Part shown: in pieces, positions 6,077-8,385 of the stretch | Layout: each line of letters begins with the position of its first letter | How positions within the stretch are numbered: the first letter of the stretch is position 1 | Assembly: GCA_963775425.1 (NCBI GenBank) | Contig: CAVZJB010000009.1 | Coordinates: 208,616 to 272,615 of the forward strand | Reading direction: 5' to 3' | Origin: an uncultured delta proteobacterium | Lineage (GTDB): Bacteria > Myxococcota > UBA727 > VGSZ01 | Length of the DNA stretch: 64,000 nucleotides | Translations under genes and position numbers: made by a program | Notes under the pieces: generated by a model | What the model was told of the DNA's origin: nothing | Databases searched by the model: none | Seen by the model: only the letters and a program-made list of their open reading frames with translations

Positions 6077-6321
6077 GCAGTTTCTTGGCGCGCTGCGCGC
6101 GCCGCGCGCTTCGCGCGGGGCCCTCCGGGCCCCCCACGCGCTTCGCGCGCGGGCCCCCCCCTTCTTCAGCTTGCGCATCGATGGGCCCGCTCGCGGAGCT
6201 CGCGCTTCCGCGAGACATGCAGCGCGCTCCTCAAAGACGCGGGACCAAGCTCGCGGCGGAGCCGCCCTCGCAGCGGACTGCGGCGGCCGGCTCCGCCGCG
6301 CTCCTTTTCGACGGCTTGACC
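6077..6321. repeat. left arm of a ~250-bp imperfect inverted repeat (partner at 8129-8385)
   Basis: The reverse complement of 8129-8385 aligns to 6077-6321 at about 90% identity. For example gcggcggagccggccgccgcagtccgctgcgagg at 8150-8183 is the exact reverse complement of the stretch at about 6259-6292 (reading ...cctcgcagcggactgcggcggccggctccgcc...). Confidence 0.85.
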
Positions 6322-6387
6322 TCGTCACCCCCCCGAACGGCTCCGCCGCTACGACTGGGACGTGCCCTCGGCGTCCTCATCGGGCCG

Positions 6388-6526
6388 CGCGCCTCCTTGG
6401 CGCGCCTCCTTGGCGCGCCTCCTTGGCGCGCCTCCTTGGCGCGCCTCCTTGGCGCGCCTCCTCGGCGCGCCTCCTCGGCGCGCCTCCTTGGCGCGCCTCC
6501 TTGGTGCGCCTCCTCGGCGCGCCTCC
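6388..6526. repeat. tandem array of a 13-nt unit GCGCGCCTCCTTG x ~11
   Basis: Direct reading shows gcgcgcctccttgg iterated with TTGG/CTCG variants. The unit is not a multiple of 3. It sits immediately 3' of the FG-GAP gene stop codon (6530). Confidence 0.9.
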
Positions 6527-6529
6527 ACG

Positions 6530-7894
6530 TCAGCGACGCGGCGCTCTGCCTCGGTGCGGCGATCGCGCCGTGGTGATGATGGCCACGGCGGTCTTGCCCT
6601 GGTGCGGCTCGCCGACCAGGACGACGCCGGGGAGCGCCGGCATCGCCACCACATGCACAAACGCAGGGACCTCCCACGTCGCCGTCGCATCCAGGGCGAA
6701 GCCGGCCGCAGTGCCCTTGTGGAGCGCCGCTCTCCCAGGCTCGCCCAGGTCCAGCAGGTCCGGCACGCCGTCGCCGTCGAAGTCGACGCTCACCACCGGC
6801 AGCGCGCCGTCCATGTGCCCGCCGCGCACGTCGGCCTTCGCCTGCATCGCCAGCGGTTCGCCCCCCTGGAGCCCCACCTTCACCGGGATCCGCCCGGTGA
6901 CGACGACGGCCGACAGCGAGACCAGCGACGTGTCCACCTCCGCCACCACCAGCGCGCGGCCGCGTTCACCGATGGGCGCCACGAGCCCGTCCCGCCGCCA
7001 CAGCAAGCGCGGCGACGAAAACGGCCGCGCCGACGTCGACGACACCAGCCACGCCTCCGAGCGCTCGGGCACCGCGCCGCGCGTCACGCCGATCACGGCG
7101 TCGGCGCGGCCGTCCGCGTCGGCGTCGACGATGCGCACACGCAGGTCGGCGTCGCCCGCGCCGACGGTGCGCCCGAGGTCGCCGGACAGCCACGGACTCG
7201 CCTCGAGATCGCCGGCGGTGCGGCGCCACACGACCACCTCCCCCTCGTGCACGGCGATCAGGTCCGTGTCGCCGTCGGCGTCCACGTCGGCGTCGATGAG
7301 GCGCGGCCCATACAGCGACAGCGCCTCCGCGTAGCCCCGATCGGGCCGCAGCCCGCGATGCGCCCGTCCCGAGTACGCGCGCGCCTCGTGGCGCATGTGC
7401 ACCAAGCGCGGCGCCTTCGCCGCCTCCCCGCCGCGCGGCGGACGCGGCACGACAAGGAGGCCGTCCACCACAGGCAAGCGGAGCTCGCCGTCGCCGTCGC
7501 CGCGCTGGCCGCAAAGGTCCGCCACCAGCAGCGCGTCCGCGTCCGGCACCGTGAACAGCGCGTGCCCCTCGACGAGCACCTTGCCGTCGACGTCCTCGAG
7601 GCCCCGCGGTCCCGCGAACACGACGCGGCCGTCAGGGCACGCGTCCACGAAGATCGCGTCGGCCGGGACCCGGCTGTCCGCGGCCGCCCGCCGGCCCTCC
7701 GCGTCGACGCGGACCAGGCGACGACCCCGCGCGTCCGCGCTCGTGAGCACGATGGTCCGCGGCTTCGCGAAGAAGGCATCGGAGACCGCGCCGTCGATCG
7801 CCACCACCGGCGCAGCAGCGGCGACCACGGCAGCGACGACGGCAATGACGGCGGACAGCACGCCGTCCTCTATCGCCCCGGCGCGCCCATGCAT
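6530..7894 (-). CDS. FG-GAP/VCBS-repeat (integrin-alpha-like beta-propeller) protein with N-terminal signal anchor
   Basis: Internal ATG at 7894 gives MHGRAGAIEDGVLSAVIAVVAAVVAAAAPVVA, a signal anchor. FG-GAP calcium-binding repeats are DADVDADGDTDLIAV, IVDADADGRADAVIGV and VSVDFDGDGVPDLLDLGEP. The ORF upstream of this ATG merely translates the 8-nt repeat (LLAFLPSC...). Confidence 0.7.
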   Translation of the reverse strand: MHGRAGAIEDGVLSAVIAVVAAVVAAAAPVVAIDGAVSDAFFAKPRTIVLTSADARGRRLVRVDAEGRRAAADSRVPADAIFVDACPDGRVVFAGPRGLEDVDGKVLVEGHALFTVPDADALLVADLCGQRGDGDGELRLPVVDGLLVVPRPPRGGEAAKAPRLVHMRHEARAYSGRAHRGLRPDRGYAEALSLYGPRLIDADVDADGDTDLIAVHEGEVVVWRRTAGDLEASPWLSGDLGRTVGAGDADLRVRIVDADADGRADAVIGVTRGAVPERSEAWLVSSTSARPFSSPRLLWRRDGLVAPIGERGRALVVAEVDTSLVSLSAVVVTGRIPVKVGLQGGEPLAMQAKADVRGGHMDGALPVVSVDFDGDGVPDLLDLGEPGRAALHKGTAAGFALDATATWEVPAFVHVVAMPALPGVVLVGEPHQGKTAVAIITTARSPHRGRAPRR

Positions 7895-7936
7895 ACCCAC
7901 GGACCAAGGCAAGAAAGCAGAAGGGGGAAGGGGAGA

Positions 7937-8097
7937 AGGCAGAAGGCAAGAAGGCAAGAAAGGCAAGAAGGCAAGAAGGCAAGAAGGCAAGAAGGCAAGA
8001 AGGCAAGAAGGCAAGAAGGCAAGAAGGCAAGAAGGCAAGAAGGCAAGAAGGCAAGAAGGCAAGAAGGCAAGAAGGCAAGAAGGCAAGAAGGCAAGAA
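7937..8097. repeat. tandem array of an 8-nt unit GGCAAGAA x ~20
   Basis: ggcaagaaggcaagaagg... with one gaaagg variant. On the minus strand it lies 43-203 nt upstream of the FG-GAP start codon. Confidence 0.9.
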
Positions 8098-8128
8098 GGT
8101 GGAGGAGCGCTGACGACGAGGCGGGGCG

Positions 8129-8385
8129 GTCAAGCCCCCCAACAGGAGCGCGGCGGAGCCGGCCGCCGCAGTCCGCTGCGAGGCCGGCTCCGCCGCGAGC
8201 TTCGTCCCGCGTCATTGAGGAGGGCGCTGCGCCTCTCGCGAAAGCGCGAGCTCCGCGAGCGGGCCGTTCGAAGGCACACCCTCAAGCGGGGGGGACCCGC
8301 GCGGAGCGCGGGGGGGCCCGGAGGGCCCGGCTGTTCGCGCGCGAAGCGCGCAAAAAAGCAGCCCGTCGTGGGGACGACGGGCTGC
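8129..8385. repeat. right arm of the ~250-bp imperfect inverted repeat (partner 6077-6321)
   Basis: See the left arm. The outer end contains an intact terminator hairpin; the equivalent position in the left arm is degenerate. Confidence 0.85.
8352..8385 (-). terminator. rho-independent terminator downstream of the 8426-9367 gene
   Basis: Perfect 12-bp stem gcagcccgtcgt / acgacgggctgc with a gggg loop, followed on the minus strand by TTTTTT (aaaaaa at 8352-8357 on plus). Confidence 0.75.

Follow-up and report, generated by a model that had tools for sequence, protein, structure and literature searches.

The 64,000-nt stretch of DNA analysed here (the window), derived from an uncultured member of the Myxococcota, contains a gene for an FG-GAP/VCBS-repeat protein that is enclosed by a pair of inverted repeats and by two arrays of short tandem units. 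This layout raises the question of how the gene came to lie between the repeats, whether it was inserted as a cassette, is turned by a switch, or is a native gene that was inverted where it stands. Comparison with ten related lineages suggests the last of these, and the locus represents a well-polarised case of one gene turned round in an otherwise rigidly conserved neighbourhood, with both breakpoints preserved as an inverted duplication.

Gene content and gene order

The FG-GAP/VCBS-repeat gene is located on the minus strand between lgt and a further gene, both likewise on the minus strand. A sequence-only reading had placed the gene at 6530-7894, and this is borne out by Pfam (FG-GAP_3; 2.3e-09) and by a database match, with the translated product sharing 100% identity with protein P0001, the one member of its cluster, found on one 394-kb contig. 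A total of 47 homologs were identified, and the protein carries an N-terminal signal-anchor-like segment. The database start is the ATG at 7894 (454 aa), while an alternative GTG at 7861, yielding a gene of 6530-7861 and a 443-aa product, appears to fit the N-termini of the homologs and the promoter geometry described below better.

The lgt gene (5207-6064, minus strand; start GTG 6064; Pfam LGT: 4.1e-43) codes for prolipoprotein diacylglyceryl transferase, and lgt is an essential gene of lipoprotein maturation. Its N-terminus (VHPVLFSAFGQTVHS) matches that of the relatives, in which the gene is syntenic, and it heads a conserved minus-strand cluster of lgt followed by genes for a 140-aa protein, a PEGA protein, a 373-aa protein and a response regulator. 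On the other side, a conserved gene (8426-9367, minus strand) encodes a 313-aa protein which belongs to no Pfam family. The gene is syntenic in the relatives, with unchanged orientation, and their genes of ~293 aa share 72-76% identity with it. Pfam scans of the window ORFs (about 286-17582) found no recombinase, transposase or RAYT within about 8-10 kb of the locus. The window ORFs without a Pfam match are conserved syntenic genes in the relatives, whose Pfam tables also contain no recombinase.

Orthologs of the FG-GAP gene occur in the same neighbourhood, divergent from lgt, in all ten related lineages (39-67% protein identity). The divergent orientation is seen directly in six of these (L001, L003, L004, L007, L009 and L014) and is inferred from adjacent conserved genes in the remaining four (L006, L010, L012 and L013). 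When the genes of the relatives were placed on the window by tblastn, ten flanking genes were found to keep their order and strand, and the FG-GAP gene alone is reversed. The gene content of L013 equals that of the window, in the ancestral orientation. The FG-GAP protein shares 60-67% identity with relatives, a level similar to that of its neighbours (66% for Lgt and 72-76% for the 313-aa protein), indicating vertical descent. As the gene is divergent from lgt in 10/10 relatives, the flanks are collinear and only the stretch between the repeats is flipped, it is, as judged from these sequence comparisons, a native gene flipped in situ and not an inserted cassette.

The repeats bracket the sole flipped gene, an inverted repeat being located at either end of the inverted segment. 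The sequence-only reading had tied them to an inversion of the interior, and this link is upheld by the interior being inverted relative to all ten relatives with the flanking genes unchanged in order and strand. It had also called for a comparison of the lgt flank in relatives lacking the repeats, and these hold the FG-GAP gene at the same position in opposite orientation. Its suggestion of an inserted cassette or composite element, on the other hand, is not supported: the gene is a syntenic ortholog at its native position, the repeats are non-coding and lack terminal inverted repeats, and no transposase is encoded nearby.

Structure and distribution of the inverted-repeat arms

The left arm (6094-6321, plus strand; 228 nt) and the right arm (8352-8128, minus strand; 225 nt) are identical at 195 of 224 positions (87%), with 5 gap columns, in a Smith-Waterman alignment. 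BLASTN pairs 6094-6321 with 8128-8352 (e-value: ~1e-62), and a repeat search returns a 144-nt core (6178-6321 and 8128-8271) with 90% identity. The inverted repeat is genuine, and far exceeds what chance would produce. The sequence-only reading was correct in recognizing it, though its dimensions (~245 nt with ~90% identity, 6077-6321 and 8129-8385) were slightly too generous. The longest perfect blocks common to both arms are 40 and 24 nt in size, and ~29 positions differ, in addition to indels.

Alignment, folding and the third-position GC profile describe the left arm as a non-coding chain of GC-rich hairpins, with a ~22-bp hairpin at 6253-6299, and the right arm, by alignment, fold and hairpin pattern, contains a perfect hairpin at 8150-8196. 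The intergenic blocks in which the arms are situated (6080-6500 and 7880-8400) are both non-coding by third-position GC. Differences between the arms avoid the hairpin stems, which are thus preferentially conserved between the copies, while the hairpins inside one arm are all unlike each other. The inward-facing terminus GGCTTGACC, which resembles a -35 element, is conserved in both arms. As the arm ends, TGCGCGCG... and ...GGCTTGACC, are not mutual inverted copies, there are no terminal inverted repeats within the arm, and inspection of the four junctions revealed no target-site duplication, either direct or inverted.

The similarity of the arms does not reach the terminator of the 313-aa gene, which argues against the earlier proposal that a terminator-containing segment was duplicated. 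Likewise, the supposed intact terminator in the right arm and its degenerate copy on the left are not supported, given that the outer flank with the terminator hairpin (8353-8386) shows no significant similarity to 6040-6093, being equalled by 199 of 2000 shuffles. Alignments that would carry the homology on into the terminator or the inner spacers were not significant relative to shuffles, and such an extension was rejected. The left inner spacer (6322-6386; 65 nt) and the right inner spacer (8100-8127; 28 nt) both belong to the inverted segment, and the former shows no significant similarity to the latter (648 of 2000 shuffles equal).

No third copy of the arm was found within the 64-kb window by BLASTN and nhmmer, a search covering 62 kb of flanking DNA with ~50 intergenic regions, and the signature hairpin within the window is limited to the two arms. 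BLAST, nhmmer and inspection of intergenic regions showed that the relatives' loci have no arm homologue; the closest relative, at 67% protein identity, has no arm, and none of the relatives retains alignable intergenic DNA at this locus. When the intergenic regions were compared with the relatives by BLAST at low stringency, only noise in coding DNA was obtained. Among 185,579 GTDB representative genomes and the JGI metagenomes, a set which does not include the source genome, the signature hairpin pattern gave just two chance matches, one in Nocardiopsis (L008) and one to a terminator-like hairpin in L011. The arms correspond to no known RNA family, the sole Rfam match being that of the terminator to Acido-Lenti-1 at 21 bits, compared with a gathering score of 37. 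The possibility that the arms are relics of genes occupying a variable slot in the relatives (acyltransferase, NAD kinase and small proteins) was considered and rejected, with blastx yielding only matches of E > 0.1. A coding role for arms or arrays, including a long ORF that runs from ATG 8215 through the 8-nt array, was similarly rejected, with third-position GC giving no signal there and the homologs measuring 412-458 aa.

Promoters, terminators and transcription

A putative core promoter of the leaderless type precedes the FG-GAP gene on the minus strand (7867-7894), with a -35 element ATGCAT (7894-7889), a 16-nt spacer, a -10 element TAGAGG (7872-7867) and 5 nt to the GTG at 7861. It is proposed from conservation across relatives alone: the geometry TTGC(A/G)N - 16/17 nt - TA(G/C)NNN - 5/6 nt - GTG also occurs in L003, L004, L006, L007 and L013, and a generic sigma-70 promoter scan of 5900-8600 returned no match. 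The putative promoter is situated inside the flipped segment and so travels with the gene, which would have retained its own promoter after inversion.

The 313-aa gene ends in an intrinsic terminator (8357-8386, minus strand), consisting of a 13-bp stem followed by a T-run and located outside the arm homology. A minus-strand scan from 6530 to 6064, between the FG-GAP gene and lgt, found no terminator. An RNA stem of ~240 bp around the whole gene had been envisaged in the sequence-only reading, and predicted folds do energetically favour the arm-arm RNA duplex (-472 versus -283 kcal/mol). The two arms are, however, unlikely to be present in one transcript, since the conserved promoter lies inside the flip, with the right arm situated upstream of that promoter and directly behind the strong terminator (8386-8357).

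A remnant of 29 nt (6065-6093) separates the lgt start from the left arm and contains a -10-like TACAGA 6 nt before the GTG; from the sequence the corresponding -35 position would fall inside the left arm. The ancestral upstream region of lgt thus appears to have been lost beyond 29 nt, which implies that lgt expression would have to come from the left arm or from read-through of the FG-GAP gene. The regulatory effect of the rearrangement would be that the flipped gene brings its own promoter, while its former divergent partner lgt is deprived of its upstream region and becomes the downstream neighbour.

Origin of the inverted arrangement

The ancestral layout, as represented by the ten relatives, would comprise lgt (minus strand), a divergent promoter region of ~100 nt, the FG-GAP gene (plus strand), a convergent terminator region and the 313-aa gene (minus strand). 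In the present layout the segment 6322-8127, containing the gene, its core promoter, the array upstream of that promoter and the one past the stop codon, is flipped, with the FG-GAP gene now located upstream of, and co-directional with, lgt. The likeliest route may be one where inverted copies of a segment came to flank the gene and homologous recombination of the RecA type flipped the interior, after which the arms would have diverged to 87% identity, leaving the arrangement essentially frozen and no working switch. We give a probability of roughly 45% to this reading, a lineage-specific in-place inversion of a vertically inherited gene through arm recombination, in which the ~228-nt hairpin-rich inverted duplication marks the breakpoints.

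With arms that differ by 13% and share perfect blocks of at most 40 and 24 nt, the locus probably represents an old, frozen inversion rather than an active switch, and at this divergence RecA-dependent flipping should be rare, if it takes place at all. Several observations weigh against the recombination route. There is no third arm copy in the 64 kb or in the relatives, so that a dispersed repeat landing twice is without evidence; before the inversion, an arm just 29 nt ahead of the start of an essential gene would have been risky; and the layout fits a one-step inversion with duplication equally well. As mechanisms, arm recombination and one-step inversion-plus-duplication are nearly tied.

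The one-step inversion, a tentative but quite possible explanation, would begin with a single arm-like segment on one side of the gene, most simply by the terminator of the 313-aa gene. If the DNA were broken in a staggered fashion at that point and cleanly within the lgt/FG-GAP promoter region, filling-in and joining of the ends would invert the gene and duplicate the segment together, with the arms subsequently diverging to 87%; a replication template switch at the hairpin-rich DNA could give the same product. The layout is exactly that predicted for one staggered breakpoint, and the loss of the lgt upstream region and the arrival of a co-directional upstream gene would occur in a single step. 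Furthermore, the remainder that is neither arm nor array (6065-6093, 8100-8127 and 7862-7905; 29 + 28 + 44 = about 101 nt) appears to match the ancestral intergenic size, the divergent lgt/FG-GAP intergenic regions of the relatives being 67-112 nt, and would thus rebuild such a region with no ancestral arm needed there. The arm also has no other copy in anything searched. Precedent is found in Drosophila, where 17 of 29 fixed inversions show inverted duplications of non-repetitive breakpoint sequence, with a mean identity of about 88% and often derived from one breakpoint only (Ranz et al. 2007, PMC1885836). The present locus resembles these in being outgroup-polarised and in carrying an inverted duplication of apparently non-repetitive sequence, from one breakpoint only and at similar identity, but the model stems from Drosophila and involves end joining, and the ancestral single-copy status of the arm is here an assumption.

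Features of the locus also count against a one-step origin: the corresponding intergenic region holds no arm-like sequence in any relative, L013 included, and the arm differences avoid the stems, which is better suited to a maintained structured repeat than to a decaying by-product. In addition, the staggered-break model is documented in eukaryotes, a literature search gave no bacterial case, and we know of no staggered-break inversion in bacteria. Should the complete genome contain no arm copies beyond this pair, the locus would represent a bacterial candidate for one-step inversion with breakpoint duplication, which has so far been documented in eukaryotes.

The arms may alternatively be a dispersed non-autonomous mobile or REP-like element that landed independently on both sides, or whose replicative intramolecular transposition inverted the interval, but we consider this unlikely. 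The modular architecture of GC-rich hairpins, the preferential conservation of stems between the copies, the inward-facing GGCTTGACC terminus shared by both arms and the lineage-specific gain implied by their absence from the relatives' loci are in its favour, and intergenic GC-rich hairpins absent from related species are likewise characteristic of REP/BIME clusters and MITEs (Nunvar et al. 2010, PMC2817692; Delihas 2011, PMC3184786). REPs, however, are short GC-rich palindromes with >100 copies per genome (PMC2817692), whereas here there are two copies in 64 kb, the 62 kb of flanking DNA with its ~50 intergenic regions holding no other. The hairpins within an arm differ instead of forming one alternating palindrome, and their signature hairpin is limited to the two arms in the window. 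The arm has no terminal inverted repeats, the four junctions show no target-site duplication, and a transposase or RAYT gene was not found nearby. Outside the window, the hairpin pattern is absent, save for the two chance matches, from the 185,579 representative genomes and JGI metagenomes, a collection lacking the source genome.

That the arms still flip the gene as a reversible switch, by means of RecA or an unlinked recombinase, is improbable. Such a switch would toggle lgt and the FG-GAP gene between divergent and co-directional arrangements, with array length tuning the promoter. [quoted passage not shown] Some invertible regions also have no recombinase nearby (PMC9881135). Frequent exchange would nevertheless homogenise the arms, against which their 13% divergence argues; no recombinase is encoded within about 8-10 kb; the promoter flips with the gene and so yields no simple ON/OFF state; and the orientation is derived from a single assembly of the source organism. 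Programmed invertons and gene-altering inversions (hin, fim and the invertible promoters of Bacteroides; Milman et al. 2023, PMC9881135) similarly comprise segments flanked by inverted repeats whose orientation varies between genomes. They differ in that their repeats are short and near-identical, a recombinase is usually encoded nearby, and a promoter is flipped or coding ends are swapped, whereas here the repeats are long and diverged, no recombinase is located nearby, and the inverted unit is an entire gene plus its promoter.

More doubtful still is an undescribed, recombinase-independent type of inverted repeat, in which hairpin clusters with maintained stems would occasionally flip the promoter-plus-gene unit, coupling and uncoupling the FG-GAP gene and the essential lgt operon, with the fast-evolving micro-arrays beside promoter and stop codon forming part of one tunable module. 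A mis-oriented or misjoined interior is the least credible explanation, for although the source is a MAG contig from short-read metagenome assembly, and inverted repeats and tandem arrays beyond read length are classic sources of error which may have rendered the array copy numbers wrong, the arms are 87% identical with a longest common run of 40 nt, so that k-mers longer than about 41 distinguish them and settle the four junctions, the arrays are unique in the window, and the gene, promoter and both flanks are intact, with junctions free of frameshifts.

The preferred in-place inversion through arm recombination has its nearest parallel in chromosomal inversions that arise by homologous recombination between inverted repeats, for instance IS elements or rRNA operons. 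There too, a pair of inverted repeats of a few hundred bases lies exactly at either end of the segment that is turned, and a dedicated recombinase is not required, as in the RecA-dependent IS-mediated rearrangement of Burkholderia thailandensis (PMC9946442). The present case differs in that the repeats are non-coding hairpin clusters with 13% divergence, bounding a single gene of 1.8 kb, and in being old-looking and no longer readily reversible. Overall, the locus is a clean case of a rearrangement whose kind is already known, and not a new mobile element. It is otherwise an ordinary structural variant of an uncultured organism, and provides no evidence for a new mobile element or switch.

Tandem micro-arrays within the inverted segment

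A tandem-repeat search identified two arrays in the flipped segment. The 13-nt array (6387-6526; x10.8, 96% matches; plus strand GCGCGCCTCCTTG, gene sense strand CAAGGAGGCGCGC) begins 3 nt past the FG-GAP stop codon, while the 8-nt array (7906-8099; x24.5, 93% matches; plus strand AAGGCAAG, sense strand CTTGCCTT) is located directly upstream of the inferred -35 element and has a GC content of 50%, compared with 71.5% for the genome. The earlier count of ~11 copies stands for the former array, while that of ~20 for the latter was too low. Both arrays are purest at the arm-proximal end. By BLASTN they are found nowhere else in the window, and they are the sole short-period arrays in the 64 kb with a unit that is not a multiple of three. 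The location of one upstream of the inferred -35 element and of the other past the stop codon differs from that of a simple-sequence contingency locus, in which slipped-strand phase variation depends on a tract inside the coding sequence or between -35 and -10, where copy number gates expression.

RNA pairing between the arrays was rejected. The units look inversely related by eye (CAAGGAGG+CGCGC versus CAAGAAGG), in a manner resembling SD/anti-SD pairing, but shuffled 13-mer units matched or bettered the cofold gain of -41.9 kcal/mol in 11 of 30 cases, and the 7/8 match between array units has an estimated chance of roughly 0.1 over all rotations. That the 13-mer arose by amplification of a ribosome-binding site belonging to a downstream gene since lost is no more than speculation, with no similar post-stop motif being found in the relatives.

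With a purity of 93-96%, compared with 87% identity between the arms, the micro-arrays may represent slippage expansions inside the flipped segment which would be younger than the arms and have no role in the inversion mechanism. In other lineages, too, micro-arrays are found upstream of the orthologous promoter.

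A single-gene inversion between lgt and its upstream neighbour

The gene encoding an FG-GAP_3 repeat protein (6530-7894, minus strand; Pfam 2e-09) is located between lgt (5207-6064, minus strand; Pfam 4e-43) and a gene coding for a 313 amino acid protein (8426-9367, minus strand). Its 454 amino acid product is identical to a database protein (P0001) found on a single 394-kb contig, with 47 homologs of 273-458 amino acids, one of which is attributed to a Myxococcota MAG. In the window, with a G+C content of 71.5%, third-position GC exceeds 0.9 in lgt, the FG-GAP gene (about 6560-7820) and the 313 amino acid gene. 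The profile stays level across 6080-6500 and 7880-8400, and the inverted-repeat arms, spacers and tandem arrays there are thus non-coding.

The genomic context of ten FG-GAP homologs (39-67% identity) was compared. All ten loci share a response regulator, a 373 amino acid, a PEGA-domain and a 140 amino acid protein gene and lgt on one strand, with the FG-GAP gene read divergently from lgt on the other strand. Beyond it follow a slot of variable genes, a gene for a protein of about 293 amino acids, convergent with the FG-GAP gene, and YscJ/FliF-like and FliG-like genes. When the relatives' proteins were placed on the window by tblastn, all ten flanking genes retained their order and strands, and only the FG-GAP gene was reversed (7750/7795 down to 6566/6575). 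Its identity to the relatives (60-67%) matches that of lgt (66%) and the 313 amino acid gene (72-76%), and it is therefore a vertically inherited ortholog rather than an import. One relative, L013, has exactly the gene content of the window, with the FG-GAP gene directly adjoining a 299 amino acid gene in the ancestral orientation.

Conserved gene order indicates that the segment between the arms (6322-8127) was inverted in situ in this lineage, a real single-gene inversion bounded by an inverted duplication, which is a known kind of rearrangement. The synteny comparison proposed in the sequence-only reading thus finds just this stretch flipped, and the inserted cassette or composite element envisaged there gives way to a native gene. 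In all relatives with enough sequence, the YscJ/FliF-family and FliG-like genes (9368-11427 in the window) adjoin the lgt/PEGA/response regulator cluster; the flanks retrieved show no further flagellar or type III secretion genes.

The inverted-repeat arms

Gapped BLASTN places the arms at 6094-6321 and 8128-8352 (E about 1e-62), while a repeat search returned a 144-nt pair with 90% identity (6178-6321/8128-8271). By Smith-Waterman alignment, the left arm of 228 nt matches 225 nt of the right (8352-8128) at 195/224 aligned bases (87%), with five gap columns. The inverted repeat noticed earlier therefore exists, although the arm length and identity then stated do not hold. The terminator, considered part of the repeat, falls outside it: the outer flanks, including the right-hand hairpin at 8357-8386, share no significant similarity (199/2000 shuffles score as well), nor do the inner spacers (648/2000 shuffles). 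The inner ends of both arms (6313-6321 and 8128-8136) are identical GGCTTGACC, containing a -35-like TTGACC directed into the flipped segment and preceded by a less conserved stretch; no -10 element matching this TTGACC was found.

Both arms form a series of differing GC-rich hairpins, each including a ~22-bp stem (8150-8196 in the right arm, 6253-6299 in the left), with z-scores against shuffles of -5.2 and -2.6. No Rfam family matched the arms, no third copy occurs within the 64-kb window (BLASTN and nhmmer profile), and the relatives' loci harbor neither an arm homolog nor a long inverted repeat around the FG-GAP gene. Searches for the signature hairpin pattern in two collections that do not include the source MAG gave a single chance match each: a Nocardiopsis among the GTDB representative genomes and an unrelated terminator-like hairpin in the JGI metagenomes. 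The arms are a lineage-specific hairpin-rich segment. Their derivation from genes filling the variable slot in relatives was rejected by comparison with those genes.

Differences between the arms fall at paired positions of each arm's own minimum-energy fold less often than expected (15 versus 26.9, P<1e-4, one strand; P = 0.005, 0.04 and 0.08 for the others), and a two-sequence consensus fold has 0/68 pairs broken and two compensatory changes. Maintenance of the hairpins thus has moderate support, to be weighed with caution since the differences are also regionally clustered and a consensus fold tends toward such a result.

Origin and age of the inversion

Programmed inversions usually have their recombinase encoded nearby (PMC9881135), whereas Pfam searches, including the tables of syntenic relatives, revealed no recombinase or transposase gene for about 8-10 kb around this locus. 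As the arms also show neither terminal inverted repeats nor target duplications, two routes are left. Homologous recombination between inverted copies is the canonical bacterial route for inversion, and recombination between two pre-existing arm copies is the reading we slightly favor, at a probability of roughly 0.45. The apparent maintenance of the arm stems agrees with it; it would require an arm on both sides beforehand, with one of them ending 29 nt ahead of the lgt start.

A one-step event, with inversion and duplication arising at once, is somewhat less probable. The layout is exactly what would be expected under the staggered-break model (Ranz et al., PMC1885836) with a single breakpoint staggered, and such inversions in Drosophila leave inverted duplicates averaging 88% identity, compared to 87% here (PMC1885836). 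Furthermore, the residual 29 + 28 + 44 = 101 nt would together restore a divergent intergenic region about as long as the ancestral one (67-112 nt in relatives), and no further arm copy was found in the window or the relatives' loci. Should the arms be otherwise single-copy in the complete genome, this would represent a bacterial case of inversion-with-breakpoint-duplication, and the locus would be of greater interest, as it would be if both orientations occur in reads.

By either route, recombination or one-step, the inversion looks old, since the arms are 13% diverged and their longest perfect blocks (40 and 24 nt) are at or below the stated RecA minimal processing segment, recombination dropping steeply with divergence (PMC4824099). 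Active flipping would be expected to keep the arms alike, and a working switch is therefore unlikely. Mis-orientation of the interior by the assembly is also unlikely, as the two arms can be told apart at about 29 positions, plus indels, and their longest identical run is 40 bases, such that k-mers longer than 40 nt resolve all four junctions. The array copy numbers may be inaccurate.

Promoter, start codon and transcription

Five relatives (L003, L004, L006, L007 and L013) share the arrangement TTGC(A/G)N, 16-17 nt, TA(G/C)NNN, 5-6 nt, GTG. The putative minus-strand counterpart in the window is ATGCAT (7894-7889), 16 nt, TAGAGG (7872-7867), 5 nt and GTG 7861, and the predicted core promoter is thus probably inside the flipped segment. 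Read from GTG 7861, the protein (VLSAVIAVV...APVVAIDGAVSDAF) lines up end to end with the relatives' N-termini, such as that of L006 (VVFISAAL...APVVTVDGAVSDAML). Given this fit and the conserved geometry, the annotated ATG 7894 probably belongs to the -35 element, with the database start likely 11 codons too long, while the called start of L007 appears 8 codons too short. As the -10 lies 5-6 nt from the GTG, transcription would start at or beside the start codon, and the family appears to be transcribed as leaderless or near-leaderless mRNA in six lineages.

An RNA stem around the whole gene, as formerly suggested, is energetically favored (arm-arm duplex -472 kcal/mol versus -141 kcal/mol per arm folded alone), but unlikely, as the right arm is located upstream of the promoter and directly behind a terminator (13-bp stem and T-run), and would be transcribed only through read-through. 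Transcription across the left arm is quite plausible, since a scan of the minus strand revealed no terminator from the FG-GAP stop codon to lgt. A 16-nt direct repeat (x2.1-2.4; GGTCGATCGGCTGCGG) at 8380-8422, between the stop codon of the 313 amino acid gene and the terminator, overlaps the 3′ half of the terminator stem.

Tandem arrays

Both micro-arrays noticed in the sequence-only reading are present: a 13-nt array at 6387-6526 (x10.8, 96% matches) and an 8-nt array at 7906-8099 (x24.5, 93% matches), the only short-period arrays in the 64 kb with a unit that is not a multiple of three (TRF). The former starts 3 nt past the FG-GAP stop codon; the latter, with the core promoter placed at 7894-7867, lies directly upstream of the inferred -35. 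Both lie within the flipped segment, and the repeats of each are purest toward the adjacent arm; being purer than the arms, the arrays are younger. Neither is in coding sequence nor between -35 and -10, unlike the classical slipped-strand contingency design. The 13-nt unit combines an 8-bp palindrome (GGCGCGCC) with a perfect Shine-Dalgarno-like AAGGAGG on the gene sense strand; the array, with a folding energy of -93.8 kcal/mol by itself, places about 11 strong ribosome-binding-like sites on the likely read-through path to lgt.

In several other lineages, too, micro-tandem arrays stand right before the orthologous FG-GAP promoter, each with a unit unrelated to the rest: (CATCGA)x6.2 at L006:333-369, (GTCCTGCG)x3.9 at L007:5909-5939, a 34-mer x2.8 at L010:5800-5891 and a 20-mer x2.3 at L012:885-928. 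For the relatives alone, four arrays in 1,500 nt stand against an expectation of 1.05 derived from these loci (P=0.02), which suggests that this region is slippage-prone or tunable. In L013, an 8-nt x3 array (ACGTCGTC; 1452-1475) starts from the FG-GAP stop codon, paralleling the position of the 13-nt array, while the distant relative L010 harbors two different intergenic 34-nt hairpin-containing tandem repeats in the same neighborhood (1166-1292 and 5800-5891). Large tandem repeats of 129, 105, 90 and 399 nt (TRF scores up to 2255), all multiples of three, occupy 48837-51816 of the window and presumably belong to a gene for a repetitive surface or adhesin-type protein.
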